Shown here: one piece after another, positions 1 through 59,952 of the stretch
Layout: each line of letters opens with the position of its first letter
Numbering within the stretch: position 1 is the first letter of the stretch
IMG/VR virus record: IMGVR_UViG_3300049432_000039
Coordinates: 1 to 60,895 of that record
Source of the DNA: a virus
Lineage: Duplodnaviria; Caudoviricetes
Length of the DNA: 60,895 nt
Direction: 5' to 3' (one strand)
Notes under the pieces: generated by a model
Databases searched by the model: none
The model's input: the letters and a program-made list of their open reading frames with translations, nothing else
What the model was told of the DNA's origin: nothing
Translations under genes and position numbers: made by a program

Positions 1-17
1 GGGGCCCGCCGCCCCCC

Positions 18-143: not shown

Positions 144-1741
144 AGGCGATTATGCGCGGGCTGCTGGCCGACCGCCCGGCATTTGGGTCGGCCGGACGGC
201 TCTACTACGCGACCGACGAGCTGATCCTGTACCGCGACTCTGGGGCCGCCTGGCAGGTCGTCGGGACCGGGCTCGCCTTCGATGACGGGGCGACACCGGC
301 CGCCCTGGCCGGCTCGGCCGCCACCGGCGACGACGTCTACCCCGCCCGGAGGGACCACGTCCACTTGGACCCGGTCGTCGCGCACGCGGCGGCCGGCAAC
401 CCCCACCCAACCTACACCACCGACGCCGAGGCCGGCACGATCGCCGATGCGTCCGTTGCCACCCATGCCGGGCTCTCCGATCCGCACACGGGGTACGTCC
501 TGGAGTCGTTACTGGACGCCAAGGGCGACCTGATCGCGGCCAGTGCCGACAACACCCCGGGCAAGCTTGGGGTTGGCACCAACGGTCACGTGTTGACCGC
601 TGATTCTGGTGAAACGCTCGGTGTGAAGTGGGCGGCAGCCAGCGGTGGGGCAGCGCTGACCGTTCAGGAGGTCGACGGCACCCCCATCGACACCGCTGTC
701 ACGATTATCCGGGTCACCAATGGCAAACTGACCGACAACGGCGCGGGAGACGTGACCCTCGACCTGAGCGGCGGCGGCGCGGCGTTCGACGACGGGGCGA
801 CGCCCTCGGCGCTGGCAGGGGCAGCCGCCACGGGCGACGACATCTACGCCGCGAGACGGGATCACGTCCACCTCGATCCGGTTGTGGCGCATGCGGCTGC
901 CGCCGACCCCCACACAGGCTACTTGCTCGAATCGCTGGTTGACGCCAAGGGCGACATCCTGGCGGCGACCGCCAACGACACCCCCGCCCGACTGGCGGTC
1001 GGAGCCAACGGACTCGTCCTGACCGCCGACTCCGGCGAGACGACCGGCCTCAAGTGGGCGGCCGGCGCCGGTGGCGAGGCGACCGACATCGACGTCTCAG
1101 ACTCAGCGCTCACGACCACCGAGGGCAAGATCCTCTGGCGGACCACCCGCAAGGTGCTCGATCTCTACGACGGCAGCCGTGAGCGGGCGATGTCGGCGGT
1201 CGGGTTCGCGCCGGTCGCCTTTGTGCATGGCTTCAACGCCCAGACCTCGGCCTCGGCCACGACCAACCTGGCCGCTGTCGGCGGGACGTTCCTGGTCGCG
1301 ATGCACGTCCCCACCCATATGCTGCTGCGGTCGCTGACCTGGCGCAACGCCGATACGACGCTGGCCCGGTCGATGGAATGGGCGCTCTATGAGGACCGCA
1401 ACAACGCTGCGAACGCGATCGACGCAATCACTGGAGCTGCCGGCTCGGCGTCGTGGACGGCGGCGGCTGCCGCAATCCGGGTGGAGGCCGCGACGGGGGC
1501 GCCGGTGTACCTGGGGCCGGGCCTGTACTGGCTCGCGATCAGGAACACCCATGCCACGAACACGCTCGGGATCTCGACGGTGGCGACCGGCATCCTGGCG
1601 GCGCAGATCAGCCAGACCAAGACCCTCGGCTCGGCCTTGGGCAGCACCCTCGATATCGTGGCGGCGACCTGGAGCAAAGGCACTACCGCGCCGGTCGTAG
1701 AGCTCCACGGCTCGATCGCGGGCCAGAGCACGGTGTTCTAA
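128..1741 (+). CDS. Tail fibre / receptor-binding protein with internal repeats
   Basis: GAGGAGG at 114-120 favours GTG at 128; duplicated [24 protein letters not shown] and ESL.DAKGD..A..D.TP.RL.VG.NG.VLTADS modules; follows the last tail gene across the circle junction. Confidence 0.75.
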
Positions 1742-1813
1742 GGAAACCCATGATGATCGGGGGATGCGCGGCGGGGGATCGGGGGCAGCACCCGTTCACG
1801 AAAAGTCGGTCCG

Positions 1814-2374
1814 ATGCTCCTCTCACGACTCTCGATGAGGAAACTCCACCAGATGACAAACTTCCGCGTTGCCGTCCTGGCGACGATTGCGTTTCTCGCG
1901 GCACTGATCGCCCTCGTGGGTGCAGTAGCGGCAATCTTCGTGTCCTCGGACCGCGGCATGACGATCGTCTCCGTCGTCATCACGGGGCTACTGTCGTTGC
2001 TGCCCACCGTCATCGTCTACCTCAAGACCGATGCGATTGAGAGCAAGGTAGACGCTGCTGCCGATACGGCTATCACAGCAGCCAGACACGCGGCCCGAGC
2101 TGAGCGGAAGATCGACACCGTGCAGGAGTTCGTGGAGAACGGGGGGCTACGGCGCAACGTCGTGGGCGCCATCAAGGAGGCCGGCGATGACCCCGAGATC
2201 CGACGTCGGCGCATCGAGACAATCGCTGAGGGGGTGAAGGAGGACCGTCACGAGACGGGGAGCCGAGAGGCCGCCGCCTACGCGCGTGGTGTGGCTGACG
2301 CGATGAAACGGTGGGGTGGTGAGCACGGGGAGCCGGTAGAGGGAGAGGACGCAGATGACCAACGAGACGCTTGA
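1814..2374 (+). CDS. Membrane protein with two hydrophobic helices (holin-like)
   Basis: Two long hydrophobic segments; located in the lysis region; start codon uncertain. Confidence 0.55.
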   Translation: MLLSRLSMRKLHQMTNFRVAVLATIAFLAALIALVGAVAAIFVSSDRGMTIVSVVITGLLSLLPTVIVYLKTDAIESKVDAAADTAITAARHAARAERKIDTVQEFVENGGLRRNVVGAIKEAGDDPEIRRRRIETIAEGVKEDRHETGSREAAAYARGVADAMKRWGGEHGEPVEGEDADDQRDA

Positions 2375-2693
2375 CCTGACACTGAAGGCCGTCATCGCAT
2401 TGGCTACTGTGGTGGCCGCGCTGCTCGGCGTGCTGAACAACCGCGCTATCAAGGCCAATACGTCGGCCGTGCAGAAGGTGGAAGTCAACCTTGACGGACG
2501 CCTGAGCCAACTCCTGGAGCAGACGGCGCACGCCTCCCGCGCTGAGGGCCGCGACTCCATGCGCGCGGGTGACGGACTCGACGCGGGGTCTATCGGCCCG
2601 GCTGGACCGGCTGGTATCCAAGGCCCCGTAGGACCACAGGGTCAGGTGGGGCCGGCGGGCGTCCAGGGCGCCACTGGTGAGCACTCGTTGTGA
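2355..2693 (+). CDS. Membrane protein with short collagen-like (Gly-X-Y) tail
   Basis: N-terminal TM segment; GPAGPAGIQGPVGPQGQVGPAGVQG; GGAGAGG RBS. Confidence 0.6.
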   Translation: MTNETLDLTLKAVIALATVVAALLGVLNNRAIKANTSAVQKVEVNLDGRLSQLLEQTAHASRAEGRDSMRAGDGLDAGSIGPAGPAGIQGPVGPQGQVGPAGVQGATGEHSL

Positions 2694-2885
2694 ATGCCCT
2701 GAGCCTGCTCGACGGCTTGGCAGAGAACGTCAAGCGCCTCCACTCGGTCGCGTTGGCCCGCCTCCAGCGCCTGATGGAGCCCCGAAAGATGAGGGCGACA
2801 GCGTGACGAGATGGCTGCTTGGACCCGGGTTGTTGCTGCTGATCCTCCTGTGGGTCGCTTTCGTGGTGTGGTGGATTACGCCGTC

Positions 2886-3089
2886 ATGAACAAGATCCTG
2901 AGCACCCGAACGCAACTCATTATCTCGTGGGTTTTGCTGATCGGTTCCATCGTGGGATGGCCCGTCACGTCGTTGACCATCTTTGCTACTGAACCGCAGG
3001 GGATTCTGGGGCTCAGTTGGTTCGCGATCATCCTTGGCGCCTTCAACACGATCGTGACCGCCACAGTCAACGATGAGGTGACTCCATGA
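2886..3089 (+). CDS. Small two-TM membrane protein (holin candidate)
   Basis: Hydrophobic 67-aa ORF with ATGA coupling. Confidence 0.55.
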   Translation: MNKILSTRTQLIISWVLLIGSIVGWPVTSLTIFATEPQGILGLSWFAIILGAFNTIVTATVNDEVTP

Positions 3090-3109
3090 TAAACCTGCGT
3101 ATCGTCACC
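3086..3109 (+). pseudogene. Stranded N-terminus (MINLRIVT) of the 3478-3783 gene
   Basis: ATG overlaps the upstream stop; resembles MVNLRIIS at 3478. Confidence 0.6.
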
Positions 3110-3118
3110 GCTGCGCGC

Positions 3119-3388
3119 TCATGTTCGGCGCGCAATGATGTGGCTGACCGTTGCCTGCGTAATGCCGTATTCAGAAGCAAGGCGGCGCTGCGTGATACCG
3201 CCGACCGAGCGCTTCAGGCAACCACACGACCGCGCACGGCCATGCTTCAAGGCCGATCCCTCGGCGGATCGAGTTGCCCCACAATCGCACTGACACAACC
3301 AGTACGCAGGGACAGTTGGGTCTTTTTCCAGAACGACCAGTCGGCCAAAACGCTGGCCCGGTTCGAAGCTGATAAGATTCGCTCGCAT
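3119..3388 (-). pseudogene. Internally deleted HNH-type homing endonuclease (N-terminal Cys domain and C-terminal HTH, no nuclease core)
   Basis: GQRFGRL..WLCQCDCG..SCGC joined directly to TQRRLASEYGITQATVSHI; ends RRT* where the paralogues read RRETW or GESW. Confidence 0.7.
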
Positions 3389-3459
3389 CGAGCCACACCT
3401 CGGTGTCGCCCCAGCGTGTTAGTCGCACGACTGGGGCATTCTTCTGCTCAGATTATACC
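3389..3459 (-). promoter_or_regulatory. HNH leader 1: TATAAT promoter, bulged hairpin and RBS
   Basis: GGTATAAT..AGAAT GCCCCAG T CGTG CGACTAA CACG CTGGGGC GACACCGAGGTGTGGCTCG ATG. Confidence 0.7.
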
Positions 3460-3477
3460 ACCCACTCGGAGGGCGGC

Positions 3478-3783
3478 ATGGTGAACCTTCGCATCATCTC
3501 CATCGCTGTAGCCGTCTGTCTGGGGATGCTCGGGGCTATCCAGCTCGCCTCGCCTGAGTCGCTCGGCATCTCGGCTGTTGCAGCTCGCTGGCTCGGGATC
3601 ATAGCCACAGGTCTGGGCATCCTTGCCGGCTTCCTGCCGAGAGTGCAGGGGCCCTCTGCCAATCCTGAGACCCTGGCCGACCGCGTCTGGGCACTGCCAG
3701 AAGATGAGCGGCAGCAGGTTGCCACTGATCTCGCGGCACGTGCTGAGCGCGCAGCTAGAGGGGTGAGCGTTCCGCATGGCTGA
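3478..3783 (+). CDS. Holin-like two-TM protein
   Basis: GGAGGG RBS; two TM segments; directly upstream of the endolysin. Confidence 0.6.
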   Translation: MVNLRIISIAVAVCLGMLGAIQLASPESLGISAVAARWLGIIATGLGILAGFLPRVQGPSANPETLADRVWALPEDERQQVATDLAARAERAARGVSVPHG

Positions 3784-4831
3784 TCCGAAGACCCGCGCCG
3801 AAGTCATCGCTATCAGCAACACGGTTGCCGACGAGTTCCGCATCCCTCGGCTACTCCTACTCGCGTGCGGCATTGCCGAGGGTAATCTGGTCTGGAACGC
3901 ACGACGGCCAACCAGCGCCGCTCAGGACGCCGCGTTCTGGCCTGACGTGTCGGGAGGACCGTGGCAGCAGACCGTCAGATACGACCCCGACTATCACGGC
4001 GGGAGCGCGTATCCTGGCCCCGGTGAGGTTGCCCGGGTACTGGAGCTCCAGTACGACACGCAACGATCGGCACAACTAGCTGCCGGCCAACTCAAAGCAA
4101 AGTGGAACGGGCAGCAAACCGACGACGAAATGCTGAAAGCGATGTTTTTGTACAACTGGCCGGCGGGTGGCGGCAAGCCGTACACGCCGGCCCACGAGGC
4201 CAACTACAAGCGTGGCCTGACCGAAGCATGGGCCATCCTGGGAGCGACTCCTATGCCGACGATCAAGCTCTCCGACGTGCTCGCCCGTGGCCGCTCACGC
4301 ATCGGTGACCTGTACGTCTGGGATGGCGAGGTACCCGGCGGCTTTGACTGTAGCGGGTTCATCCGCTGGACTTACAACGGCGCCCTGACATCGTTTACGG
4401 ACTCGATCCTGGGGGAGACTGAACGGGTCGAGAAGCCAGCACCCGGCGACATCGTGCTCTACGAGTACCAGGATGCGAGCCAGCCGGGCGTCAGATTCCC
4501 GCACGTCGGCCTGTTCCTGTCCGACACGAAGACGCTGGATGCCAGGTTCGGCGCCGGCGTGGGCGAGCACGACCAGCTCTCCCGATCCACGGCGACGCGC
4601 TACTACCGCCGGATGCCGGGCGTCATCGTGGACACGGCCGGCGCGCCACCCCCACCATCGCCGCCACCTGACGAGCTGGCGACCCTCCGCGCCGAGAACG
4701 AACGCTTGAAGACTGTGCTCGGGTACGCGAGTCAAGATATCGGCGCCGCGCTCCAGAAGGAGGCCGATGCCATCGTCGCTCAGGTCGGCGCGCTGACCGC
4801 CGCCATCAACACACTACGGAGCCAGAAATGA
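3776..4831 (+). CDS. Endolysin: lysozyme-like N-terminal domain plus NlpC/P60 peptidase
   Basis: GFDCSG..PGDIV..HVGL NlpC/P60 motifs; IAE..SGGPWQQ lysozyme-like motif. Confidence 0.8.
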   Translation: MADPKTRAEVIAISNTVADEFRIPRLLLLACGIAEGNLVWNARRPTSAAQDAAFWPDVSGGPWQQTVRYDPDYHGGSAYPGPGEVARVLELQYDTQRSAQLAAGQLKAKWNGQQTDDEMLKAMFLYNWPAGGGKPYTPAHEANYKRGLTEAWAILGATPMPTIKLSDVLARGRSRIGDLYVWDGEVPGGFDCSGFIRWTYNGALTSFTDSILGETERVEKPAPGDIVLYEYQDASQPGVRFPHVGLFLSDTKTLDARFGAGVGEHDQLSRSTATRYYRRMPGVIVDTAGAPPPPSPPPDELATLRAENERLKTVLGYASQDIGAALQKEADAIVAQVGALTAAINTLRSQK

Positions 4832-5000
4832 CCGTTCTGACGATCACCGTTGACGAGATCCCGGATGTCGAGACGCGCTGCCGCCTCAAGGCTAGTCTGG
4901 CCACCGTCTACCGTGCGATTACGGGGACGGACGCAGATGTGGGAGTCGATATAGTCCCGTCACGCTGACCCCCGCGCTCCCGGCTCAGGCGGGGTGAGGG

Positions 5001-5303
5001 TTAGCGGTCCTCGTACTGGTGACACTCGATGACCCACTCCAGCACATCGGGGCGGACCGCGATCATCCGATACGGGGCAATCGAGGAAGGCATGCGCCTG
5101 GGGAAGAACCGCGTCGCCTCCTGATTCTCTCCGTGTTGTATCCAGAAGCCGTCACGTTCGATGTCATCCCAGGAGAAGACCTTGCAGCCGCACTCGATGC
5201 AGAATGACGATAGCGGCTGATGATAGAAATCCTGCGCGCCAATGGTGATCTTCACCGCGCCGGGATGCTTGTGTGGCACCCGCTCGTCGTCGTGCGTGGT
5301 CAT
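5001..5303 (-). CDS. Hypothetical protein
   Basis: GGAGG RBS, ATGA coupling. Confidence 0.55.
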   Translation of the reverse strand: MTTHDDERVPHKHPGAVKITIGAQDFYHQPLSSFCIECGCKVFSWDDIERDGFWIQHGENQEATRFFPRRMPSSIAPYRMIAVRPDVLEWVIECHQYEDR

Positions 5304-5722
5304 CCTCCTGCCCCAGGATCGACGGTCACCGCCGTCGCCGTGTGTGACTTGAAGTGCTCAGCAGCCGTTGAGTCCTCGACGCACTCTGGGCAGACCGCTG
5401 GTGCGCTAGGCGACGGTGGGGCGGCGGCACGGTCGGCGGCGGCGAGGGCGGCATCAATGGCTGCGTTGTGCTTCACGGCGACGCAATTACACTGTGCATC
5501 TGCATAGTCTTCGGGATAGTCACTGTCCTCGCGCTGAGCGATGGGGCAGTCGAAATAGGGGTCACCCAGAACTCGAAAGTGTGGAATCCGCGCTGTTTCG
5601 AGCGCTGCTATCAAGACTGGCACAGCGCTCGCCACAGTCACGACATCGTCCTCGAAGTCGAGGAGCGATCCTTCGTTGCTCAGCAAGCGCTCTGCCGATG
5701 CTCTAACATCTTCCATGCTCAC
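5300..5722 (-). CDS. Hypothetical protein
   Basis: Its GTGA start is the TCAC insertion target of the adjacent IS element. Confidence 0.6.
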   Translation of the reverse strand: MSMEDVRASAERLLSNEGSLLDFEDDVVTVASAVPVLIAALETARIPHFRVLGDPYFDCPIAQREDSDYPEDYADAQCNCVAVKHNAAIDAALAAADRAAAPPSPSAPAVCPECVEDSTAAEHFKSHTATAVTVDPGAGG

Positions 5723-6103
5723 AGAAATCGTCCCAGGAAGCTGCCTGCTTTAGCTGGCAGAGGAATGGGACAGCCGATCTTGGATCGGCCCCGGATTGAG
5801 AACCGAGAATCAACCGCCACTCGGTACAATGAAAGGGATGAGTCCAAAGGCACCCACTGGGTCAAACAGTTAGGACTCAGCACCTTGACAACCAAATCTT
5901 GACGGTTGCTGGCAGGACTCTTTGCCAGCGTAAAAGGTTTGAAGCGGGGTCGGAGCATGTCTCTGGCCTGTCCTTCGGAGTAGCCTCGGGGCTACATGCT
6001 GGGGCGTCAGTCAATGCGCCTATGGTTGGGGTCGTTGATGTTGGAGATCGAAGCCCAACGGAGATCACTGACAAGCTGCCTGCTTTAGCTGGCAGTCGTT
6101 GAC
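5723..6103 (+). mobile_element. Non-autonomous IS200/IS605-family element (381 bp, no tnpA/tnpB) retaining the TnpB-type right end
   Basis: Follows TCAC; subterminal hairpin AAGCTGCCTGCTTTAGCTGGCAG at both ends; ends TTGAC; tnpB-like C-terminal remnant ASVNAPMVG; removal restores a GTGA stop/start overlap. Confidence 0.75.
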
Positions 6104-6342
6104 TCTCTCCTCTCGCGCCTCTCCCACTCCCTCCGCGCTCGGCGGTAGGCGTCGCAGCGGATGCACATACCACCAGCGGCGCTGAGTGGACAGGGGACGC
6201 CACTCGATCTGGCGTAGCACTCGCCGTAATCAACCCGACGCGGCGGCTGATTAGGATCACGGTATATCCGTTGTTCGTTCATCGTCTCACAGACCACCCG
6301 TCCCAGGAAGCTGCCTGCTTTAGCTGGCAGTCGTTGACTCAT
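6085..6342 (-). CDS. Small Cys-containing hypothetical protein modified at both ends by IS-derived sequence
   Basis: GGGAGG RBS; without the elements it reads MSETMNEQRIY...RRE*. Confidence 0.55.
   Translation of the reverse strand: MSQRLPAKAGSFLGRVVCETMNEQRIYRDPNQPPRRVDYGECYARSSGVPCPLSAAGGMCIRCDAYRRARREWERRERRESTTAS
6291..6338 (+). mobile_element. 48-bp collapsed IS605-type mini element (left and right ends fused through one hairpin), inserted in frame
   Basis: TCAC|AGACCACCCGTCCCAGGAAGCTGCCTGCTTTAGCTGGCAGTCGTTGAC. Confidence 0.75.
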
Positions 6343-6401
6343 CGTTTCCTCCCTGCCCGCCTCGCGTCGTGCCGCTCAGGCGGCGTGGTTGGTGGTGGTG
6401 G

Positions 6402-6590
6402 TCAACCGTTCCAGTCGTCACCGTTCCGAAGGCGACGCTCAACATCGTTCAGTAGATTGACGGCGTTTTGGACTTGCTGCGCGCTCACGCGCCATCCATC
6501 CTCTCGAAGCTCGTGTGCATCGGTACTGAGGCGCGTAGCCATATCGGAGAGGCGGTTGGCGAGTCGTCGAGCGGACATGATCTCTGGCAT
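6402..6590 (-). CDS. Hypothetical protein
   Basis: Member of a leftward small-gene operon. Confidence 0.5.
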   Translation of the reverse strand: MPEIMSARRLANRLSDMATRLSTDAHELREDGWRVSAQQVQNAVNLLNDVERRLRNGDDWNG

Positions 6591-6641
6591 GCGTTCTCAT
6601 CCCCTCGTGCCCGCCGCCAGTGATGGCGGCGTGGTCAGTCG

Positions 6642-6809
6642 TCAGTCGTCGGATTCTGGCTTATACGGGTCCAGCAACGCGGCGTGCGTCGGGCAGAAGT
6701 CGTCGTTGTCGATGTTGATCCCCCAATCAGCGGGAGGACCGTCCCCCTCGTCGGTCTCGACTTTGGCATCACAGCGATGACCGTCGCAGTACCAGATCTC
6801 TTTCATGCT
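6642..6809 (-). CDS. Small Cys-rich (Zn-finger-like) protein
   Basis: CDGHRC..GW-like..DFCPTH; resembles 8909-9121. Confidence 0.55.
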   Translation of the reverse strand, partial: SMKEIWYCDGHRCDAKVETDEGDGPPADWGINIDNDDFCPTHAALLDPYKPESDD

Positions 6810-6868
6810 CATGGTGCTCTCCTCCATGCTCGCTCAGCGCCGGCCGTGCCTGCCGGACGGGTGGTGGG

Positions 6869-7072
6869 TCATTGTCCGAAAGTCTGGACTCGCTTTGCCC
6901 CACAGATGGGGAGTTCTGTAGTCGAGCCGAGAGCGATCGTCACGCCGTATTCGGCCTTGCAACCGTATTCGCAAATCAGCAGCAGTTCTCCGTCATTGCT
7001 GAGATACATCAGGCTCATCGGCTTATCGCAATGCGGGCAGACCATGCTGTTCCGTTGCTCAAGTTTCTGCAT
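6869..7072 (-). CDS. Small Cys-rich protein
   Basis: CPHC..CEYGC; GAGGA RBS. Confidence 0.5.
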   Translation of the reverse strand: MQKLEQRNSMVCPHCDKPMSLMYLSNDGELLLICEYGCKAEYGVTIALGSTTELPICGAKRVQTFGQ

Positions 7073-7351
7073 CTTCTCGCTCTCTTCCTCGTGCCGTTCG
7101 CCACGGATGATCTAGGCCAACGATTCGTGTAGCAAACTCCACAAGCCCTCTGGACGGGTGCCTGTGATCGAGGCACTGGAGGATGGCGTCTACGGTGGAA
7201 GAATCGCCGCGTCTCTCAGCAAGCATCGCGAGTCGTTCTACGACGGCGATGTCCTCGCGATTCCAGCACGGGATACACAGGCCGCGTACAACCGTCCAGT
7301 CCCGAAGGGCGCAGGACCGGCAGGGCTCAGGATTCTCGGCCGCTAGCGCGC

Positions 7352-7549
7352 TCATCGAGCGCGCCCGACCGTGGTCCAGGAGATGTACTCGGCCTCGACG
7401 TAGTGGCCAGTTGCGATGCCGAGTTGTGCGTCTAGCATGTTCATCCTGACCCAACGGAGCCGCGAGCACATGAATGACGAGCGGTACGCTATTGGCTTGC
7501 CGTTCTTGTCGGTCGTGAACGCTACTGCGGTGCCCTGTCGCCATTCCAT
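7352..7549 (-). CDS. Hypothetical protein, first gene of the leftward operon
   Basis: AGGAG RBS downstream of a leftward promoter. Confidence 0.55.
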   Translation of the reverse strand: MEWRQGTAVAFTTDKNGKPIAYRSSFMCSRLRWVRMNMLDAQLGIATGHYVEAEYISWTTVGRAR

Positions 7550-7595
7550 GTCCGTCTCCTGTGCGCCGTGGTGCTTCGTTGTCTGCTCTGAGGTA

Positions 7596-7679
7596 ATCTT
7601 ATCAGTTCTTGTAGTTACTGTCAAGCGTTTTCAGGCAGGAATTTGACGAATATTAGAAAGTCATGTATGATCTTGTAGT
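7596..7679. promoter_or_regulatory. Divergent sigma70-like promoters
   Basis: Minus strand TTGACA-17-TAAGAT; plus strand TTGACG-17-TATGAT; TCTTGTAGT repeated. Confidence 0.65.
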
Positions 7680-7686
7680 CGGAGGC

Positions 7687-7869
7687 ATGATGGAGGGTGA
7701 ACGCATGTACACGGTGCCGGAGGTGGCCGAGCGGCTCCGTCTGCACCAGCAGACCATCCGCGAATGGCTACGGATCGGGAAGATCAAGGGCATCCGTCTG
7801 GGCGGGACGAAGGCCGGCTGGCGCATCCCGGATAACGAGATCGCGCGATTGTTACGGGGTGAAGAATGA
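7687..7869 (+). CDS. Excisionase-type HTH DNA-binding protein
   Basis: YTVPEVAERLRLHQQTIREWLRIGKIKG..WRI. Confidence 0.8.
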   Translation: MMEGERMYTVPEVAERLRLHQQTIREWLRIGKIKGIRLGGTKAGWRIPDNEIARLLRGEE

Positions 7870-8192
7870 CGGCCGGCGTCTACGCGATCAGGAACCGTGC
7901 AACCGGCAAAGTCTATGTCGGGACGTCGCTTGATATACCCACCAGGGTGCGCGGCCACCTATCAATGCTCAAGACCGGCTGGCACCACAACAGACGGCTT
8001 CAAGAGGATTGGGTCGCATTCGGGGCGTCGGCTTTCTCATTCTGCCTCTTGAATGCTACGTCTGCTGATGCAGACCTGATCGCAGCGGAGCGGCACTGGA
8101 TCGAAGTCTTACGGGCTCGCACGGGCGGGCTCTATAACATGATGTCACCCAGGGGCGGCCCGCGTGAAGCTCGACGCCGCAACTCCCGATGA
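7866..8192 (+). CDS. GIY-YIG nuclease
   Basis: GVYAIRN..KVYVG..R..H..E..LYN. Confidence 0.8.
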   Translation: MTAGVYAIRNRATGKVYVGTSLDIPTRVRGHLSMLKTGWHHNRRLQEDWVAFGASAFSFCLLNATSADADLIAAERHWIEVLRARTGGLYNMMSPRGGPREARRRNSR

Positions 8193-8415
8193 TGGATGCA
8201 GAGACGTTCAAGGACATGCGATTCCGTCTCCAGATGAGCCAGACGACGCTCGCCAAGGCGCTCGGGGTTCATCCGTGACGGTCAACAAGTGGGAACACGG
8301 CGTGCGACCTATCACACGGGTCGTAGAGCTGGCGATGTGGGGACTCATCTTCTTTGACGAACGCGATCCCAGTCGCCGCCGCCCGCCATCGCCAGCCGCG
8401 CAGGAGGGGCCGTGA
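8189..8415 (+). pseudogene. XRE-type HTH gene with an apparent 1-nt frameshift near 8273
   Basis: MSQTTLAKALGVHP continues as VTVNKWEHG in another frame. Confidence 0.6.
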
Positions 8416-8708
8416 TGAGCGATCAATCCGACTATGCCGCCTACCTCATGCGTCACCTGGGGAAGTGCGTCGTCACCATCACGTTTGCGGGAATGGGGGT
8501 AGGATGGTTTGCTGCTGATATGCTCCGCTTCAGCGAGACGGGACAGTCCTACCTTCATCCGTGGTTGGCGTTCGTGATCCTGCTTGCTTGCGTGGGGCTG
8601 TTATTTATCGCAATGACAGCCGTCTACCAAGTCCAGGTCAACGTTGGCCAGATCGAGGCCCGCACGGCCCAGGCCGCTACGACGACGACGGAGGGCGAGG
8701 ATAGGTGA
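8412..8708 (+). CDS. Two-TM membrane protein
   Basis: Hydrophobic segments, GTGA coupling. Confidence 0.55.
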   Translation: MMSDQSDYAAYLMRHLGKCVVTITFAGMGVGWFAADMLRFSETGQSYLHPWLAFVILLACVGLLFIAMTAVYQVQVNVGQIEARTAQAATTTTEGEDR

Positions 8709-8908
8709 GCAAGAGCCACCGCGATAATCATTCCGCGCGCGTGAAGCGAGGACCGTCGGCTTTTGCTAAGAAGGCTCGGCGCCGTGCCCCCCCCGTCTGG
8801 TTATCTGTAACCTCTGTGGCACTCATGCTCGCCCAAAACTGATTGAGAGTGGTCTTTGTGAACGATGTAGACATCAAGCCGCGCTAGCGGTCGGAGGGGA
8901 GAGAGGGA

Positions 8909-9121
8909 ATGAGTGAGTACAGCACGCTGCGGTGCGATGGTGGATGCGGCGTGGAGATCACCGAGCTAGGGTGGGCGCGCGTAGAGTTGCCCGCCGGCTG
9001 GACTCGGCATCCGTACGAGGTCGAGGATTATTGCCCCGGCTGTTCGGCCGACGATGACGCCCCAACCACGGCCACGGAGCAGGACCAGGCCCGCGCCGCT
9101 GCACAGCCTGGGGGCGAATGA
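8909..9121 (+). CDS. Small Cys-rich protein
   Basis: CDGGC..GW..DYCPGC. Confidence 0.55.
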   Translation: MSEYSTLRCDGGCGVEITELGWARVELPAGWTRHPYEVEDYCPGCSADDDAPTTATEQDQARAAAQPGGE

Positions 9122-9517
9122 TGCGTGAGACGTATCTGGTCACCGGAGTCGTCCCCGCTGACGGGAGATGCTCGGTCTGCACTGGCGCGGGTACACGCTG
9201 GCTCTGGCCTCCGCGTGGGCCAGTCTTGCGATACTGCGCTGATTGCCTGGACCGACTCAGGGCTACCGACCTGGCCGCTGGACAAGGACATCTGTGGCAG
9301 CAGCAGCCAGCCGCGCAGACTGTGGAGGTGACGGATGGCACCTAGAGGCGAGCAAATCCCCAACAATCAGCGATGCCGGCACTGGTTTACCCCGTTTCGT
9401 CGTTGTGCTCGCTATGTCGCAGTGCTCAATGGTGTCATCGTAAATGGCTATTGCCGGTACCACCGCGAGCCCCGTGCAGCACAGGCCGCGCAGGCGAAGG
9501 ACGGCGAGGGATGAGCC

Positions 9518-9829
9518 ATGACAGAACCGAGTAAGGTCCAGGCACTCACGCTGCGTACATTGGCCGAGGGCGGCGAACTGCGAACTGCCCGCTGGAACGA
9601 ATCGCGAGGGGGCGATCTGAGGCGAAATGGCTCTGTCTTTCGGCTCGTGCCGCGCAAGTCGATTCAGATCATGCAGTCACGCGGGTGGATCGCCCATGAG
9701 CCCGTTGCGTACGGCCAATCGATGATCGGATGGCACCTGACGGAGAACGGGCGCGCCCTAGCGGAGGCCGCCCAGGAGGCCGACAGCCGGCCAGCAGTGA
9801 CGAGCGACGAACGGGAGGCGAGGGGATGA
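9518..9829 (+). CDS. Hypothetical (winged-helix-like) protein
   Basis: SRGWI..WHLTENGRAL. Confidence 0.5.
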   Translation: MTEPSKVQALTLRTLAEGGELRTARWNESRGGDLRRNGSVFRLVPRKSIQIMQSRGWIAHEPVAYGQSMIGWHLTENGRALAEAAQEADSRPAVTSDEREARG

Positions 9830-10060
9830 AATCTTCGAGCGCGGGGACATCGTTATCGCAAAGGCATACGGGGGCGAGTTGATTACTCGCCGCGTCTGGC
9901 AGGACGTTGGTCGCGGAGTCATGATCTGCACCGAAGAGACCTATCAAACTGCCATCCGTGACGGCTACGAGGTGTTCGCGGTGGGCTTTCCAAAGGAGGA
10001 TGTCGAACTGGCTGACACCGCCCCCGCAGCGGCGACCACGGGCGAGGACTAGGAGGACTG

Positions 10061-10354
10061 ATGCCGCGCCCCCAGCCGGTCAATAAAATCGTCTGGGCCA
10101 CTGGGGCGAATTATGCTCGCGCCCGAGAACTCTTCGAGTATATCGAGGCGGGCCACATCGATATACCGAGTCGGTGGGGACAAGCCTACTTCAACCTTGA
10201 AGACGACGGCGTCACCATCGTGGGGTTCACAAACATTGGCTGGGAGCGCCTCGAAATTGCCGCATATCGGCTCGGGTGGGTACACATTCGATCGTTCATC
10301 GGAACGTATCTGCGCTGGGACTCAAAGCGGCAGAAGATCGTCATATCGACCTGA
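10061..10354 (+). CDS. Hypothetical protein
   Basis: AGGAGG RBS. Confidence 0.6.
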   Translation: MPRPQPVNKIVWATGANYARARELFEYIEAGHIDIPSRWGQAYFNLEDDGVTIVGFTNIGWERLEIAAYRLGWVHIRSFIGTYLRWDSKRQKIVIST

Positions 10355-10417
10355 CCCGCCAGTCCACCGCCAGCACCGGCGCTCGCTGTGGGACGGGTGG
10401 TTTATACTGTAGGTTCT

Positions 10418-10619
10418 CACGCCGCGTGTAGTGGGTACCGCCCGTAACAAGGTCAAGCTCGCTGGACGCATGGGCATCGGAGTCAGGGCACGCCCCGTGC
10501 GCACGGGGACCAACCGGGATAATCCAGTGCTCTGGCTCCAGGGTGCGACAGGCCACTCGGACGCCTGCGGTAGCGGGACTGGGCAACCCCGCGGTGCCCT
10601 ACTCAGCCAGCCAACGGCG
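10418..10619 (+). ncRNA. Candidate structured ncRNA (about 200 nt)
   Basis: Follows TATACT at 10403; stems 10428-10441/10591-10602 and 10479-10491/10527-10539; no convincing ORF. Confidence 0.5.
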
Positions 10620-10708
10620 CCAGCTGTGGGACGGGTGGTAGAATCCTGATGCCTCGCGTACACTCAGATTCGACCATGGATAGCGATCTGTGGGTGCGCG
10701 GGGCTCCA

Positions 10709-10782
10709 GGGCCGCTAGCTCAACTGTGAAGAGCGCCCGCCGTATGCGCGGGAGGTTCGAGAATCACAAACTCGGTGGCCCA
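10709..10782 (+). tRNA. Degenerate tRNA / tRNA-like RNA (nominal anticodon TAT)
   Basis: Acceptor GGGCCGC/GTGGCCC, D stem GCTC/GAGC, anticodon stem CCCGC/GCGGG, variable loop AGGTT; lacks U33 and the canonical T-loop. Confidence 0.6.
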
Positions 10783-10985
10783 CCTTCGCTAGTTGAGACG
10801 CACGCACTCAGCTACCGGAGTGGAGGTTCCGGCAACGGGCCAGGGCCGGTCTCAGTAATGGGGCCGGTTTCTCTTTGCCCTGCCCCGTTGGCCTTTATTA
10901 CGCGCAACTGCCCATCGGCAACATACAGCCGCCCCACAGTCCCCGGTATGCCGCGAGCGCGTACTATGGCCCGTTGGCCGGCGGC

Positions 10986-11255
10986 TCAGATGGTGCGCTC
11001 CAGACGCTCCAACACGGCGCGTAGGGTGTAGTCCGTTGGCCTTGTCCGGTCCTGCTCCCAATTCTGGAGCGTCGGGCGAGGAATGCCGATCAGCTTCGCG
11101 GCTTGAGCCTGAGAGAGACCGCGCAACCGCCGCGCCATCTGGATCTGCCCAGCTGGGGTGAGCGGCTCCTCCGGGGGTACCTGACACTCTGGGCACCCCG
11201 GATCGTACGCGCCGGCCGCGCCGCAGGCGCCGCATGGAACGCCCCGACCGCTCAT
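10986..11255 (-). CDS. XRE-family HTH regulator with N-terminal CxxC motifs
   Basis: RRLRGLSQAQAAKLIGIPRPTLQNWEQDRTRP. Confidence 0.8.
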   Translation of the reverse strand: MSGRGVPCGACGAAGAYDPGCPECQVPPEEPLTPAGQIQMARRLRGLSQAQAAKLIGIPRPTLQNWEQDRTRPTDYTLRAVLERLERTI

Positions 11256-11494
11256 CGGGAAGACCCTAGCGCGATAGCGATTGTCGCCATTGTCGCTGAC
11301 GTGAGCGTCTTGCCGCCGTGCTGCATCGTCTCGCCAGAGCGGACCCGCGCTGCCAGGGTCTCCGCGATCTTGAGCTGCTTCGACTCGGGAGCCTTCGATG
11401 CCAGGGCGACAAACTCACTGACGACTGCCTGATCGATCTGTCCAACTGCTGCGAAGTTCCGCATCGCGCTGATCTCTCGTGCTTCGAGTGCCAT
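11252..11494 (-). CDS. Hypothetical protein upstream of the HTH gene
   Basis: GAGGGGG RBS, ATGA coupling, own promoter. Confidence 0.6.
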   Translation of the reverse strand: MALEAREISAMRNFAAVGQIDQAVVSEFVALASKAPESKQLKIAETLAARVRSGETMQHGGKTLTSATMATIAIALGSSR

Positions 11495-11521
11495 GTCCGT
11501 CCCCCTCGCTGGTGTACCCTC

Positions 11522-11550
11522 ACTATACGCTATCAGCGTATACCTGTCAA
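11522..11550 (-). promoter_or_regulatory. Promoter with overlapping palindromic operator
   Basis: TTGACA-17-TATAGT; TATACGCT-N3-AGCGTATA. Confidence 0.7.
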
Positions 11551-11632
11551 TAGGGTAAACGGCAATTCAGGCACCAATCCGGGAAACTCATCACCAGCTC
11601 GTTGGCCGGCGGCTGGTGCGCGGTGGTGGGTG

Positions 11633-11811
11633 GGGGTGACCAAAACCAGATGTCACCCTAAAGGTCCGAAGATGGCACCCGATTGGTACCGTTCGCGGCC
11701 GTCTGCGAAAGACCCACCAGATAGCCCAGGAGCCGACCCGATTTTGCATCAACTCGCTGAGTCTCACCCTCACTCGGAAGGACGAGTAGCCGAGTCACCC
11801 ATAAGTCACCC
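11633..11811. other. Putative attP region with arm-type repeats
   Basis: TCACCC motifs at 11633-11640 (inverted), 11652, 11763, 11794 and 11805; non-coding; downstream of the integrase. Confidence 0.5.
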
Positions 11812-11843
11812 GTAGCGCGCTAGAATGTTCCCCCGGAGGCCAT

Positions 11844-12374
11844 ATGCGCTACTGGTTTGACACTGAGTTCATCGAGGATGGCAAGACCATCGACCTGATC
11901 TCCATCGGCATCGTGGCCGAGGACGGTCGCGAGTTCTACGCCCAGAACCTAGACACCCACTTCGATGGGGCGAGCGATTGGGTGCAGAAGAACGTTATCG
12001 CCCATCTGTCTAACATGGAGTATTGGCATCACCGTGACGGCGACCCGGTCGGATGGTTCACACGGGAGTCGATCAGTGCCGGCATACGGACGTTCTGCGA
12101 CCCGGTGGCCTACGGCAAGCCCGAGGTGTGGGCCTACTACGCTGACTATGACTGGGTTGTGCTCTGCCAGCTATTCGGGACCATGATGGATCTCCCAAAA
12201 GGCTGGCCGATGTACTGCCGGGACATCAAGCAGTGGGCCGACATGCTCGGGAATCCGAAACTTCCGAAGCAGGAGAGCGGCGAACATCACGCACTCGCCG
12301 ATGCTCGGTGGAACCGTCAGGCTTGGGAGTTCCTGCGCGATACGGCATCCTCATCGGATTCGCCAGATAGATAG
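11844..12374 (+). CDS. DEDD 3'-5' exoribonuclease (Rv2179c-like)
   Basis: FDTEF..YDWV..HHALADA. Confidence 0.85.
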   Translation: MRYWFDTEFIEDGKTIDLISIGIVAEDGREFYAQNLDTHFDGASDWVQKNVIAHLSNMEYWHHRDGDPVGWFTRESISAGIRTFCDPVAYGKPEVWAYYADYDWVVLCQLFGTMMDLPKGWPMYCRDIKQWADMLGNPKLPKQESGEHHALADARWNRQAWEFLRDTASSSDSPDR

Positions 12375-12427
12375 GCGTCAACAGCACGCCTCACGGTCTG
12401 CTGGTCACCACTGGGCATGGAGTGAAC
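12317..12427 (-). pseudogene. Stranded former integrase C-terminus
   Basis: VHSMPSGDQQTVRRAVDAYLSGESDE.. resembles the current tail IHASAEGREEVGKLIDQYLSDTSE. Confidence 0.55.
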
Positions 12428-12428
12428 T

Positions 12429-12495
12429 GGTATAATTGACGCAAGAATGCCCCGGCACTGCTGAAACAGTCCGGGGCTCACCGAGGTGTAGCTCG
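12429..12495 (+). promoter_or_regulatory. HNH leader 2: TATAAT promoter, bulged hairpin and RBS
   Basis: GGTATAAT..AGAAT GCCCCGG C ACTG CTGAAA CAGT CCGGGGC TCACCGAGGTGTAGCTCG ATG. Confidence 0.7.
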
Positions 12496-13215
12496 ATGCC
12501 TGTTCAGTGTACCTGCCTCCAATGCGGCGGCGCCTTTACTGTTCGGCCAAGTCGAATTCGCGTGGGGACTGGCAAGTACTGCTCCTATGCGTGCAGCGAC
12601 GCCGCGAAGTTGACGCTGGTAGAACGCCCGTGCGTCATCTGCTCCACGTCGTTTATGGTACGAGCGGCGAAGAAGCAAGAGTGTTGCGGCACGCGATGCG
12701 CCCTGCGACTCGTTCAGAACCGGAAGCGCACGCCGCTCAACGTTCGGTTCTGGTTGAAAGTCAGCAAAGACGGTCCGGTCCCCGCGCATCGCCCGGAGCT
12801 CGGCCCATGCTGGCCCTGGACTGGCAGAACGGGCAGCCACGGGTATGGCCTGATCCGCCGAGGCGAAGGGGACTACGCTAACCTTGAAGCCCACCGCGCA
12901 TCATGGGAACTCCATCGAGGGCAGATCATGGACGGACTCTGGGTGCTTCACCACTGCGACAATCGCCCCTGTGTCAGGCCGGATCACCTGTTCCTTGGTA
13001 CCTCGCCGGACAACCATGCCGATATGGTCAGTAAGGGTCGGCAGGCACGAGGCGAGAAGACGAACACGGCCCGACTGACTGAGTCTCAGGTATTAGAGAT
13101 CAGGCAGCGGCGAGCATCAGGTGAACGGCAGACGGATCTCGCCCGAGAATTCAGTGTCAGTGTCAACACCATCGGGAACATCTTCCGTCGAGAAACTTGG
13201 GCACACCTGCCTTAG
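12496..13215 (+). CDS. HNH homing endonuclease with Zn-finger repeats and C-terminal HTH
   Basis: RFW.KV..CWPWTG..AHR..VLHHCDNRPCVRPDHLFLGT..DN. Confidence 0.9.
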   Translation: MPVQCTCLQCGGAFTVRPSRIRVGTGKYCSYACSDAAKLTLVERPCVICSTSFMVRAAKKQECCGTRCALRLVQNRKRTPLNVRFWLKVSKDGPVPAHRPELGPCWPWTGRTGSHGYGLIRRGEGDYANLEAHRASWELHRGQIMDGLWVLHHCDNRPCVRPDHLFLGTSPDNHADMVSKGRQARGEKTNTARLTESQVLEIRQRRASGERQTDLAREFSVSVNTIGNIFRRETWAHLP

Positions 13216-14369
13216 CCTGACTGTTGCTCTTGCTCGCTCGTGTCGCTGAGGTACTGGTCGATAAGTTTTCCGACCTCCTCGCGACCCTCTGCTGAGGCAT
13301 GGATGTAGGTTTTGAGAGTGACCCCGGGGTTGGAGTGCCCCAAACGTTCGGCCACGGCCGCCGCCGAGGCGCCGCCTTCAAGTAACGCGCTCGCCAACCC
13401 ATGACGGGCGGCATGGGGAGTCAAGTCATCCAGTTTCAACTCAGCAACGAGTTTATGTAGGTCGTCGGTCACGATGAAGGCTGACCATGGCTGCGTTTCA
13501 CCCGTTCGCTTGCGCGGATAGGGTGACTGCATGACCAGAGTCGATCCCTCCGGCTGACTGTTACGGTGACGGATTAGGGCGCTGATCACCATTGGGGGAA
13601 GGTCTACCCACCGGGGAACCCTGGACTTCGGGAGCTCTCGCCATGCCGAACCTGTCCACTGCCGTTGAATCCAGGCCCGGCGTCCGGCCAGGTCAACGTG
13701 ACTCCACGACAGGCCGAGCACTTCCCCAATTCTTAGACCGCACCCTAGCAAAAGAGCGTAGGCAGCCTCGAACCTATGCCCGACGATGGCAGCACGCAAC
13801 AGTGCCGCCTCGGCTGGTGAGACGTGACGACGTGCCGTGCGGGGCGGGGTCTTTGGAAGCGTGAGCCGGCGCGCGGGGTTACGGGCGAGCCGCTCGTCAT
13901 CGACTGCGGCTTCCAGGCAGGCCCGCCAGACACCGACCGCCTGATGCACGGTGGCGGCGCCAATACGGCCACTCAGCGCTCCCACGATGCCCTGAAGCAT
14001 GGACGGCCTCACTTCGGCCAACAGCGCCTCGTACAGGGGCGCGAGCTGCTGAAGCAGATACAGATAGTGTCGGCTGGTGTTCGGCGCCAGGATCGGCGCG
14101 ACGTAGGTGTCCCACCAGGAGCCGACCCAGTAGCCGAGCGTGACCGTGGCCGGCGCGGGTGCAGATAGTATCTGCGGAAAAACGAAACTATCGAGCCACG
14201 CGATGGCCTCGTCTTCACAGCCGCGCGGAAACTCGCGCGCTGTCCGCTTCGGATCGACGGCCGCCGGTAGCCGAGCGCGCACTGTCCCCGTGGCCGGATC
14301 GACGCTGATAGATCCGGTGCCACGGCGCCGGCGTAGTGGCTTCTCGGGTTTCTTTCGACGGGGCATCAC
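13212..14369 (-). CDS. int: Tyrosine integrase
   Basis: GLRIGE (R), H..RH, LGH, KTY catalytic motifs. Confidence 0.95.
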   Translation of the reverse strand: MMPRRKKPEKPLRRRRGTGSISVDPATGTVRARLPAAVDPKRTAREFPRGCEDEAIAWLDSFVFPQILSAPAPATVTLGYWVGSWWDTYVAPILAPNTSRHYLYLLQQLAPLYEALLAEVRPSMLQGIVGALSGRIGAATVHQAVGVWRACLEAAVDDERLARNPARRLTLPKTPPRTARRHVSPAEAALLRAAIVGHRFEAAYALLLGCGLRIGEVLGLSWSHVDLAGRRAWIQRQWTGSAWRELPKSRVPRWVDLPPMVISALIRHRNSQPEGSTLVMQSPYPRKRTGETQPWSAFIVTDDLHKLVAELKLDDLTPHAARHGLASALLEGGASAAAVAERLGHSNPGVTLKTYIHASAEGREEVGKLIDQYLSDTSEQEQQSG

Positions 14370-14750
14370 TCACACCAGAAGAGATACCCGTGCGCGCCTT
14401 CGGCCACGCGGGCGAGCGCCCATGCAATGGCTTCGTACTCGGCAGCCGTTCCAAGCAGTAACCGATTGAGCATGACCACCGGCGCGCCCTCACCGATCAG
14501 GACGGATGCCCGCACCGCTGGGTCTCCCTCGGCTACCCAAACCTGAATGCCGCCGGCTTCTCCAAAAAGCCAGGTAGATGGACGGGTTGGCCTTACCTGC
14601 GCAGCATGACTCACGGCCGCCTCCCCCGGTGGGCACCTTAGTCGCCGCATTGCGACGAAAAGCAGACGGTAGCACGATGATGCGTCCCTCGTCTAGAAGA
14701 AACGCGCAACACCGGCAACCGGATGCACCGGAGTAGTTACCCCTGTTAGG

Positions 14751-15191
14751 TCAATTCGTGCGCGCCAATCGCGCAGTGCGCGCAATCCCGACCGATTCGC
14801 GCAGCCATCGCAGAATCGTTTCAGCGACTTCAGGCGGCTCGTCGGCCAATTGACCGAGGATATCGGCACCTTCAGCAATCCGAATTTCCCGGGCAGCAAC
14901 GTCTCCGCAGATACCAAGACGGCTCGCGAGGGCGCCAGGTTCCATCCGGAATGCGACAGCCAGCGGAGCGAGAGCCGGCAGTGGCAACGGCGTTTCGCCG
15001 CGCTCCCAGGCAGAGATGGTCTTTGAGGACGACCCCGACTCCATCCCAGCCGCCTGAAGTCGAGCCGCAAGCTCAACCTGTTTTAGCTCATGGGATTCGC
15101 GGATCGCTCTCAGCTTAAGGCCGACCGACTTCACGATGTCAACGAATGGTCCGCTCGCTGTCATTCTTTCCTCACGAGAGTTACCTGACAA
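14751..15191 (-). CDS. XRE-family immunity repressor
   Basis: LRAIRESHELKQVELAARL..ISAWERGE; upstream of int and divergent from the early operon; start uncertain. Confidence 0.8.
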   Translation of the reverse strand: MSGNSREERMTASGPFVDIVKSVGLKLRAIRESHELKQVELAARLQAAGMESGSSSKTISAWERGETPLPLPALAPLAVAFRMEPGALASRLGICGDVAAREIRIAEGADILGQLADEPPEVAETILRWLRESVGIARTARLARTN

Positions 15192-15294
15192 AATCCTAGC
15201 ATGGGTATTGACAGGTGTGACGCCGTGTGCATAGAATAGGTTCCAGGAATCCGAGACTTGGTGGTATCATGGCCGCTGAATCCAGAAATCCTAG
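15191..15294 (+). promoter_or_regulatory. Early promoter and candidate operators
   Basis: TTGACA(15208)-18-TAGAAT(15232); AAATCCTAG at 15191 and 15286, variant GAATCCGAG. Confidence 0.55.
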
Positions 15295-15460
15295 AGATGA
15301 ATCTTCCGATGCTGGAATGGTGCGGTCGTCGATCACGCTACCGCAGTGGCTCATTGACGAGATTGACCGGATCGTAGACCGCCGCCTGACCAATCGGTCC
15401 GCTGTGATTCGTGAGGCCATTCTGGCGTGGCTGCCGAGCCAAAAGGAGGAAGCAGCGTGA
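15269..15460 (+). CDS. CopG/ribbon-helix-helix regulator in the Cro position
   Basis: SITLPQWLIDEIDRIV..NRSAVIREAI. Confidence 0.8.
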   Translation: MAAESRNPRDESSDAGMVRSSITLPQWLIDEIDRIVDRRLTNRSAVIREAILAWLPSQKEEAA

Positions 15461-15768
15461 CTACCGACACCCTCCTGACCGCGAAAGAGGCCGGCGCCAT
15501 CCTTCGGTGCGGCCGGACCTTCCTGACGGTCCACGCTGCCGAGCTGGGCGGGATCAAAGTAGGGTCGCGGCTCAAGTTCCGGTCTGACCGGATCGAGCGT
15601 TACATCGCTGAACGCAGCATCGTGGTGGCAGTACGCGGCGCGCAGACGGCGCCCGCTCGGCACCCCGTAGACATCGCGAAGCACCGCAGTCCGATGAACC
15701 CAGTTACGAAGGCTGCCTGGGGCGCACCCGCCGCCGTGTCATCGGGCAGGGAGGGACGGGGACGGTGA
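15457..15768 (+). CDS. Excisionase-like HTH protein
   Basis: LLTAKEAGAILR..GGIKVGSRLKFR. Confidence 0.7.
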   Translation: MTTDTLLTAKEAGAILRCGRTFLTVHAAELGGIKVGSRLKFRSDRIERYIAERSIVVAVRGAQTAPARHPVDIAKHRSPMNPVTKAAWGAPAAVSSGREGRGR

Positions 15769-16525
15769 GCGGACGACTCGCGTGCTCCGACTGTGGCCGC
15801 AACTCGCCGCAAGGCCGTCATGCCAGCTGTCACGTGCTTGCCGAGCTGAAGGCAGCCCGCGAGCGTGGCTTGAGTGGCGTAGGACGCGGATTCCTTGTCC
15901 GGTCTGACTGGCTCAGCGGCGAGGTGTTCGGAGTTCACGACCTGACGCACGGTCGGCTGCATCGAACCATCGCGGCGCTACGGCGAGCAGGCCATGTGAT
16001 CGACACCATCGGCGGCGGCTGGTCTGGCTGCTCCTACCGTCTGCATCGGGAGGCCACAGCATGATCTCCCCCGCTCCCCGCCCACGGACGGCCGTGCTGG
16101 AGGCGGCACGAGAGGCGCAACGTGCCTACGTGCGGCATTTCGCGTGGTGTCAGGCAGCGGCCTATAGGCGTCCTTGCCGCGAATGTCGTGCCCTGGACCT
16201 GACTGTTTCAGCGCTGTACGCGCGGGCCGATGCCCAATGACCCGCCATCCGCCCCTCGCTGCCAGGCGTGCCACGGGAATGAGGAGGGAAGTTGACACAG
16301 CCAGCCAATCGCGTCACCCGATGGTGTCCCGTCCACGAGGACGAGATGGTCAAGCGGGGTACGGCACGGTGCCGGCGCTGCAAGGTCGATTTGAGCCTGC
16401 CACGACGACGGCGCATCGGCGTGCCGGCCGACCGACTCAAGCCGATGCGAAAGAAGGGGGAATCGACCCAACGCGCAGTGGAGCGATGGAAGAAGGGCAC
16501 GGCCCGCTAGCCGAGAGGACCACGA

Positions 16526-26567: not shown

Positions 26568-26597
26568 CTCTAGCGGGTCAGCGCATGAGGGCGCTCT

Positions 26598-59950: not shown

Positions 59951-59952
59951 CC

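Follow-up and report, generated by a model that had tools for sequence, protein, structure and literature searches.

A repeated promoter-like element and a candidate small RNA in a gene-free stretch of a temperate soil phage

The window is the whole stretch of DNA that we analysed, the 60,895-nt IMG/VR virus record IMGVR_UViG_3300049432_000039 (64.8% G+C). The phage is temperate, siphovirus-like, uncultured and from soil. PHROGs and Pfam scans of the window gave the following gene layout.

122-4831: tail-fibre and minor-tail genes
reaching to 10354, plus strand: run of small genes
7866-8192: GIY-YIG endonuclease gene, within the run of small plus-strand genes
10355-10985: gene-free stretch with units 1 and 2 (described below), the only long gene-free stretch of the phage
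10986-11255, minus strand: 89-aa zinc-ribbon and HTH protein (Pfam HTH_3, E 4e-12), convergent neighbour of the stretch and second gene of a leftward two-gene operon
11252-11494, minus strand: 80-aa ORF of no family, partner gene in the leftward operon
11844-12374: Rv2179c-like 3'-5' exoribonuclease
12436-13215: HNH endonuclease
13212-14369, minus strand: tyrosine integrase
14751-15191, minus strand: cI-like HTH protein, facing the RHH protein across a strong promoter
15227-15460: RHH protein
beyond 15460: replication, terminase, capsid and tail genes

The stretch at 10355-10985 thus borders accessory genes on one side and integration and immunity genes on the other. Its convergent neighbour encodes a CxxC...CxxC zinc ribbon with a weak match to the MqsA antitoxin family (23.8 bits, below the 61.8 cut-off), and the leftward operon (11494-10986) has a strong, near-consensus sigma-70-like promoter at 11550 to 11522 in a consensus scan. 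From its sequence, the leftward pair at 10986-11494 may be a toxin-antitoxin module. CheckV estimates the record to be 63% complete. Tail genes lie at both ends (1-4831 and 52238-60895), with tail fibres on the left and the tape measure and minor tail genes on the right, so the record may instead be a nearly whole, circularly permuted genome. Elsewhere in the window, about 2.3 kb at 5300-7660 hold only short, weakly supported ORFs. A 542-aa ORF (33034-34662, plus strand) has a very high third-position GC of 0.90; it belongs to no Pfam or PHROG family, and tblastn finds nothing like it in GenBank phages.

Judged by its sequence, 10355-10985 holds no credible gene and is non-coding, in agreement with an earlier note on this DNA. 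The two ORFs over unit 1, of 72 aa (plus strand) and 113 aa (minus strand), belong to no Pfam family and have no homologue among 5.8 billion proteins. GC content by codon position hints weakly at coding in one frame from 10370 to about 10520, and over 10460-10900 it is flat.

What sets the stretch apart is a short element that occurs three times, each time next to a hexamer resembling a bacterial -10 box, together with a hairpin resembling a terminator.

10374-10401, plus strand: 28-nt direct repeat, copy 1 (repeat search), with a 14-nt motif at 10386-10399
10403-10408, plus strand: -10-like hexamer TATACT, 3 nt past the motif (read from the sequence)
10612-10639, plus strand: 28-nt direct repeat, copy 2 (repeat search), with the motif at 10624-10637
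10639-10644, plus strand: -10-like hexamer TAGAAT after TGG, an extended -10-like arrangement (read from the sequence)
10843-10876, plus strand: terminator-like hairpin of 8 to 12 pairs, followed by TTTCTCTTT (fold probability 0.97)
10920-10939, minus strand: third motif copy, inverted (10939 to 10926, 2 mismatches), with TATGTT (10925 to 10920) immediately after it

The two copies of the 28-nt repeat (n=2) are 89% identical and 238 nt apart. They share an exact 17-nt core and differ in their surroundings. All three motif copies, of which two are on the plus strand and the third is on the minus strand, have a TANNNT hexamer beginning 0-3 nt after them. Since such a hexamer lies within 0-3 nt of a random site in this genome with P 0.0097, its presence at three of three copies is not accidental. 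With up to 2 mismatches the 14-nt motif has 4 copies in the window, against 0.85 expected, and 3 of these fall within 555 nt. The fourth (two mismatches) is at 6850 and has no -10 box.

We read the three copies as putative promoters that would share one operator-like or specificity element. On this reading, transcripts would start near 10415 for the first box and at G10651 for the second. The earlier note had proposed that unit 1 has its own promoter. The TATACT box that it named is indeed at 10403-10408, behind a motif that recurs twice nearby with -10-like boxes, but none of the three copies has a -35 element, and the consensus promoter and terminator scan called nothing within the stretch, including the hairpin at 10843-10876. 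That hairpin is nested in a 14-nt inverted repeat (10833-10846/10877-10890). The signals for an independent transcription unit are thus three -10-like boxes behind a repeated motif, lacking a -35 element, and one terminator-like hairpin common to units 1 and 2. No terminator-like feature lies between unit 1 and the second promoter copy, and copy 2 of the repeat lies inside any transcript begun at copy 1. A transcript from the first promoter would therefore extend for about 460 nt, to the hairpin near 10876, unless processed. A free unit 1 RNA of about 200 nt, the size proposed in the earlier note, would need processing.

Unit 1 was folded by minimum energy and by maximum expected accuracy with pair probabilities, which gave the following predicted elements.

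10415-10620, plus strand: predicted RNA body of unit 1
10430-10441/10591-10603, plus strand: closing stem, 12 pairs with one bulged U
10456-10478/10560-10580, plus strand: long irregular stem
10479-10491/10527-10539, plus strand: 13-bp helix with wobble pairs U10483-G10535 and G10487-U10531 (pair probability 0.99)
10493-10498/10503-10508, plus strand: inner hairpin, 6 pairs and a 4-nt loop, enclosed by the 13-bp helix
10541-10558, plus strand: hairpin
10581-10590, plus strand: 'GCAA' hairpin with a weak 2-3-bp stem (probability 0.55)

In the minimum-energy fold these elements form an extended, irregular rod with a branch point at the 13-bp helix. The stems that the earlier note had drawn by eye all occur, at slightly shifted coordinates. 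The 13-bp helix with its two G-U pairs is recovered in full. The inner hairpin was written as seven pairs with a 2-nt loop, and only six pairs around a 4-nt loop can form; the GCAA stem is present but marginal.

Taken as a whole, the fold of unit 1 is statistically no different from that of shuffled sequence. The segment 10405-10625 has a z score of -0.68, with 46 of 200 shuffles at least as stable, and the body at 10415-10620 has a z score of -0.55 (150 shuffles). The segment bounded by the closing stem reaches -1.9 (150 shuffles). A helix of at least 13 pairs arises in 35 of 200 dinucleotide shuffles (17%) of the 631-nt stretch 10355-10985. The sole outlier is the 65-nt inner element (z -4.0 to -4.6), which was chosen after inspection. 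Given its GC content, unit 1 ranks 79th in stability among 1214 200-nt windows of the genome. The multi-stem fold that had been put forward as the mark of an RNA gene therefore does not rise above shuffles (z -0.55 to -0.7).

The preference of unit 1 for folding on the plus strand is real, as the earlier note had suspected from the G-U pairs. The minus-strand fold is worse than its own shuffles (z +0.93). After regression of the plus-over-minus stability difference on G+T, the windows at 10351 and 10401 rank 5th and 17th of 1214. The plus strand of unit 1 has slightly fewer G+T than C+A, so the strand bias does not come from composition. Two other regions of the genome stand out in these stability and strand-bias scans. 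Windows at 5351-5700 rank near the top of the genome both for stable folding and for strand bias. The 200-nt window 26401-26600 leads the stability ranking on both strands; it contains a long perfect hairpin at 26515-26588, between a primase/helicase-like gene and a PD-(D/E)XK nuclease gene.

Unit 2 (10651-10876, plus strand) follows the second promoter copy and is predicted to be clearly structured in comparison with shuffles (z -3.07, with none of 200 shuffles as stable; z -2.25 in a separate set of 150).

10651-10704, plus strand: 5' hairpin, 11-bp outer stem with an inner extension (pair probability 1.00)
10709-10784, plus strand: cloverleaf-shaped segment, stems 7, 4, 5 and 4 bp long, D and T loops of 9 nt each
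10782-10827, plus strand: interrupted 16-bp hairpin (pair probabilities 0.85-1.00)

The cloverleaf at 10709-10784 folds at -30.5 kcal/mol, 0.7 above the minimum of -31.2. We rejected it as a canonical tRNA: it has no canonical D and T loops, and the Rfam tRNA model (RF00005) has no match at E≤10, with controls matched in 14 of 14 genomes. ARAGORN finds 0 tRNA or tmRNA genes in the whole window. With its threshold lowered to 80% on 10300-11000 it finds no plus-strand tRNA, and its tmRNA mode finds nothing; no Rfam tmRNA family matches at the locus. Only the metazoan-mitochondrial mode of ARAGORN draws the cloverleaf. That mode makes 9 calls in the window and 4-16 in each of ten shuffles, a rate equal to that of shuffled sequence, so the call carries little weight. 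The earlier note had placed unit 1 beside tRNA-like genes, an adjacency that these standard detectors do not confirm. The suggested context of the phage RNAs GOLLD and ROOL lacks a basis beyond presence in a phage.

We also asked whether units 1 and 2 could be paralogues built on one structural plan, in which a long hairpin ends in a 10-mer common to both and an acceptor-like stem and a tRNA-like module follow, and rejected this too. Folding unit 1 on the plan of unit 2 costs about 4 kcal/mol (-88.8 versus -92.7). Against a covariance model of unit 2, unit 1 reaches 6.7 bits (E 5.7) and is the 30th of 53 hits, and shuffles align to the other body as well in 125 of 500 local and 79 of 300 global comparisons; both results speak against paralogy. 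The fourth-best match of the unit 2 model is at 7300-7413 on the plus strand (15.6 bits, E 0.06), among doubtful small ORFs. It starts with the same bases as the acceptor stem of unit 2 and can be drawn as a cloverleaf.

Searches for known families and for relatives were largely silent. At gathering thresholds, Rfam 15 yields nothing anywhere in the window, in line with the earlier note, which had not recognised the RNA. Relaxing the threshold to E≤10 over 10200-11100 returns only mir-1225, a plant-virus pseudoknot and CC2171, all far below threshold, and a search of 4800-16500 at E≤1 returns nothing in the locus. Identities as a 6S-like RNA, SRP RNA or RNase P RNA were considered and have no Rfam support. 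Unit 1 has no blastn match in GenBank phages. A 20-mer from its internal loop has 0 matches in the viral and genome collections, and two further exact patterns for the RNA have 0 matches. The 16-mer and 17-mer forms of the motif occur at 8 viral and 84 metagenome loci, all of them chance matches without flanking similarity. Nine metagenome contigs with a chance 17-mer match share conserved, nearly identical flanks that belong to an unrelated conserved element. We found no literature description of such a cassette. A published IMG/VR catalogue of candidate structured RNAs (PMC10690425) may or may not include this locus.

Protein relatives are distant. The upstream 97-aa protein has no relative in IMG/VR, and the large terminase has no pattern match there. 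Relatives of the exonuclease occur at 80 loci with at most 65% identity; none of these loci has another gene of the region, and none has the RNA by blastn or nhmmer. A profile search for the integrase in genomes and IMG/VR finds relatives with at most 35% identity; closer integrases (55-69% identity) exist only in metagenome protein sets. Across 160 exonuclease or integrase loci there is no synteny and no unit 1 match by BLAST, nhmmer or covariance model. The unit 1 covariance model, run over 161 sources (the window and these 160 loci), returns the self hit and one hit at E 0.98.

Public sequencing runs gave one partial view of a relative. Two soil runs contain the whole stretch and may be source samples of this DNA. 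A third soil run, from a different study (X3), has contigs over 10350-10461 (8 differences in 112 positions), 10471-10593 (3 in 123) and 10783-10942. These contigs are small, at depth 2-4, and the relative is known from them by difference counts only. There is no contig over about 10594-10782, a gap that is uninformative at depth 2. In this relative unit 1 is 93-98% identical, among the highest values for 55 aligned pieces of the run. Contigs of the same run join 9508 to 10352 and 10047 to 10368, so at least one relative without the upstream 97-aa gene keeps the cassette from about 10352-10368 onward. The cassette thus looks like a conserved block whose left edge is defined and falls a short way upstream of the first motif copy. 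Two homing-endonuclease genes flank the region (GIY-YIG at 7866-8192 and HNH at 12436-13215), which fits the mosaic gene content of the relative.

We conclude that 10355-10985 is probably a transcribed non-coding cassette and a new singleton candidate for a phage small RNA locus. In the mechanism that we propose, one phage-specific promoter or operator element, made up of the 14-nt motif and a TANNNT -10 box, would be used three times. Two copies, ahead of unit 1 and ahead of unit 2, would drive transcription to the right; transcription from the inverted copy would run to the left, antisense to the 3' end of unit 2. Both rightward promoters would share the hairpin near 10876 as their terminator, so that an RNA begun at the first of them would be about 460 nt long and include both units. 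Processing might release a unit 1 RNA of about 200 nt from it. As for function, the cassette would most likely supply a small RNA with a regulatory or decoy role, an accessory ('moron') trait controlled by a common phage regulator. A scan for base-pairing targets of the RNA at phage translation starts found duplexes no better than those of reversed-sequence controls. Our leading account is a promoter-bearing cassette whose small RNAs serve an accessory function and answer to a common regulator; we hold it tentatively, at slightly less than an even chance.

The cassette reading is supported by the lack of a coding explanation, the repeat with its -10 boxes, the hairpin with its U run, the strand bias, the relative in run X3 and the temperate context. 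It is weakened by the chance-level fold of unit 1, the missing -35 element, the silent consensus scan, the lack of a homologue in our searches and the shallow depth of the X3 contigs. Unit 1 would be the first and least well-supported product of the cassette. Going by the predicted folds, its multi-stem RNA is a reasonable but unproven singleton candidate, not evidence of a new RNA class.

Among known systems, the small RNAs that prophages carry as 'morons' (e.g. the base-pairing small RNAs of E. coli prophages) are similar in having a stand-alone promoter and terminator, both putative here, around a non-coding body of about 200 nt, and in lying in a temperate-phage accessory region beside immunity and integration genes. 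They differ in that the locus has no sequence or Rfam relation to them, no target above reversed controls, and a promoter with a private 14-nt motif that occurs three times. The immunity RNAs c4 of P1 and CI of P4, families of proteobacterial phages, are cut from longer transcripts by RNase P at tRNA-like shapes, and short repeated elements, some of them complementary, lie around them. At our locus, in contrast, there is no Rfam C4 match, processing is conjecture and the cloverleaf call is at noise level. GOLLD and ROOL are also phage-associated non-coding RNAs, found near tRNA genes, but they are several times larger, and our locus has neither an Rfam match nor true tRNA genes nearby.

Bacterial Y RNAs, including YrlA, are a further comparison. 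They are about 100-200 nt long, their 5' and 3' ends pair to close a stem, and they contain a tRNA-like module with conserved D and T arms as well as a Ro-binding stem motif (PMC4201824); they also occur in phages and are RNase P substrates. The predicted RNAs of the locus resemble them in size, end-closed stem and tRNA-like module. The locus differs in having no Rfam match and in lacking the conserved nucleotides of the D and T arms. A Ro60/TROVE gene has no match at E≤1 in the record (estimated to be 63% complete), which leaves a Y-RNA reading without its partner.

One alternative is that the stretch acts only as DNA. The motif copies would then be protein-binding sites, either integrase arm-type sites of an attP or operators; the cloverleaf would be the remnant of a host tRNA target, and the stems would be incidental. 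The locus does occupy the attP position of lambda-like maps, between late or accessory genes and the integrase, and the motif copies flank the cloverleaf-shaped segment in a direct-direct-inverted layout; the chance-level fold of unit 1 is as expected for incidental stems. However, 2.3 kb and four genes separate the locus from the integrase gene, and the spacings of 238 and about 300 nt between motif copies are wide for an intasome, with the attP sites of lambda and L5 as yardstick. The cloverleaf lacks canonical D and T loops and so would be unable to regenerate a tRNA gene of the host. Neither the -10-like hexamer at every motif copy nor the strand-biased fold is accounted for. We consider this explanation unlikely, if still worth weighing.

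The stretch could also be decaying, non-functional spacer, such as what is left of duplicated promoters and a former phage tRNA gene, with any transcription functionless. The bodies of units 1 and 2 are no more similar than shuffles, the unit 2 model fails to recognise unit 1 (6.7 bits, E 5.7), the cloverleaf is degenerate, and conservation is poorly documented, relatives being scarce. Decay sits less well with a 17-nt core that is exact in two copies whose surroundings differ, with a unit 1 that is 93-98% identical in a relative with different flanking genes, and with a unit 2 that is clearly more stable than its shuffles. We doubt this account to the same degree as the DNA-level one.

An elaboration of the cassette reading goes further. 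Units 1 and 2 and the antisense unit would make up a three-promoter RNA module of soil temperate phages, new to the literature, in which the private motif or operator co-regulates a multi-stem RNA of about 175 nt and a tRNA-shaped RNA. Host tRNA-processing enzymes would separate the two RNAs, whose role would be that of decoys or regulators, either against the defences of the host or in the choice between lysis and lysogeny. We regard this as a long shot.

Another possibility is an anti-defence RNA, in one of two forms: a solitary-repeat RNA anti-CRISPR, with the inner hairpin and the bases after it imitating a CRISPR repeat of type I-E-like form, or a decoy for tRNA-targeting defence nucleases, made up of the cloverleaf and its partner. 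The inner hairpin (6-bp, G+C, with a 4-nt loop) and its 3' tail may resemble type I-E repeats, and the cassette has its own promoter-like signals in an accessory region. Racrs are promoter-driven solitary repeats in phages (PMC10651486). The predicted RNA would be like Racr in being a promoter-driven small phage RNA with a short G+C, repeat-like hairpin; it is unlike Racr in that no matching CRISPR repeat was found in Rfam or the sampled genomes and its hairpin is buried inside the larger 13-bp helix. No Rfam CRISPR-DR family matches at E≤10. The 25-nt hairpin and tail, with up to 3 mismatches, has 1 match, outside any array, in 401 sampled Actinomycetota genomes, and the reversed control has 2. 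A 25-mer shifted by one base has 0 matches in 5 other genomes; the relevant host repeat may lie outside this sample. We think an anti-defence role very improbable. Least credible of all is a small protein across unit 1, either the 72-aa plus-strand ORF at 10431-10649 or its 59-aa ATG version: a frame is open and its GC order is weakly coding-like over 10370-10520, but the predicted product is Arg/Gly-rich with no hydrophobic core and has neither homologue nor Pfam family, there is no convincing ribosome-binding site, the frame crosses the second promoter copy, and the periodicity is gone after 10460.

At this locus the repeated promoter-like element and the strand bias stand firm; the fold does not. 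The element is genuine, as is the non-coding character of the stretch, and both are slightly unusual. The locus mainly shows how readily a G+C-rich spacer yields convincing-looking stems. If the cassette is transcribed and structured, it would be an orphan RNA gene family in an uncultured soil phage lineage that has no close relatives among the IMG/VR contigs and GenBank phages searched. In that case its three co-regulated promoters would offer a tidy system in which to study how temperate phages use RNA for accessory functions.
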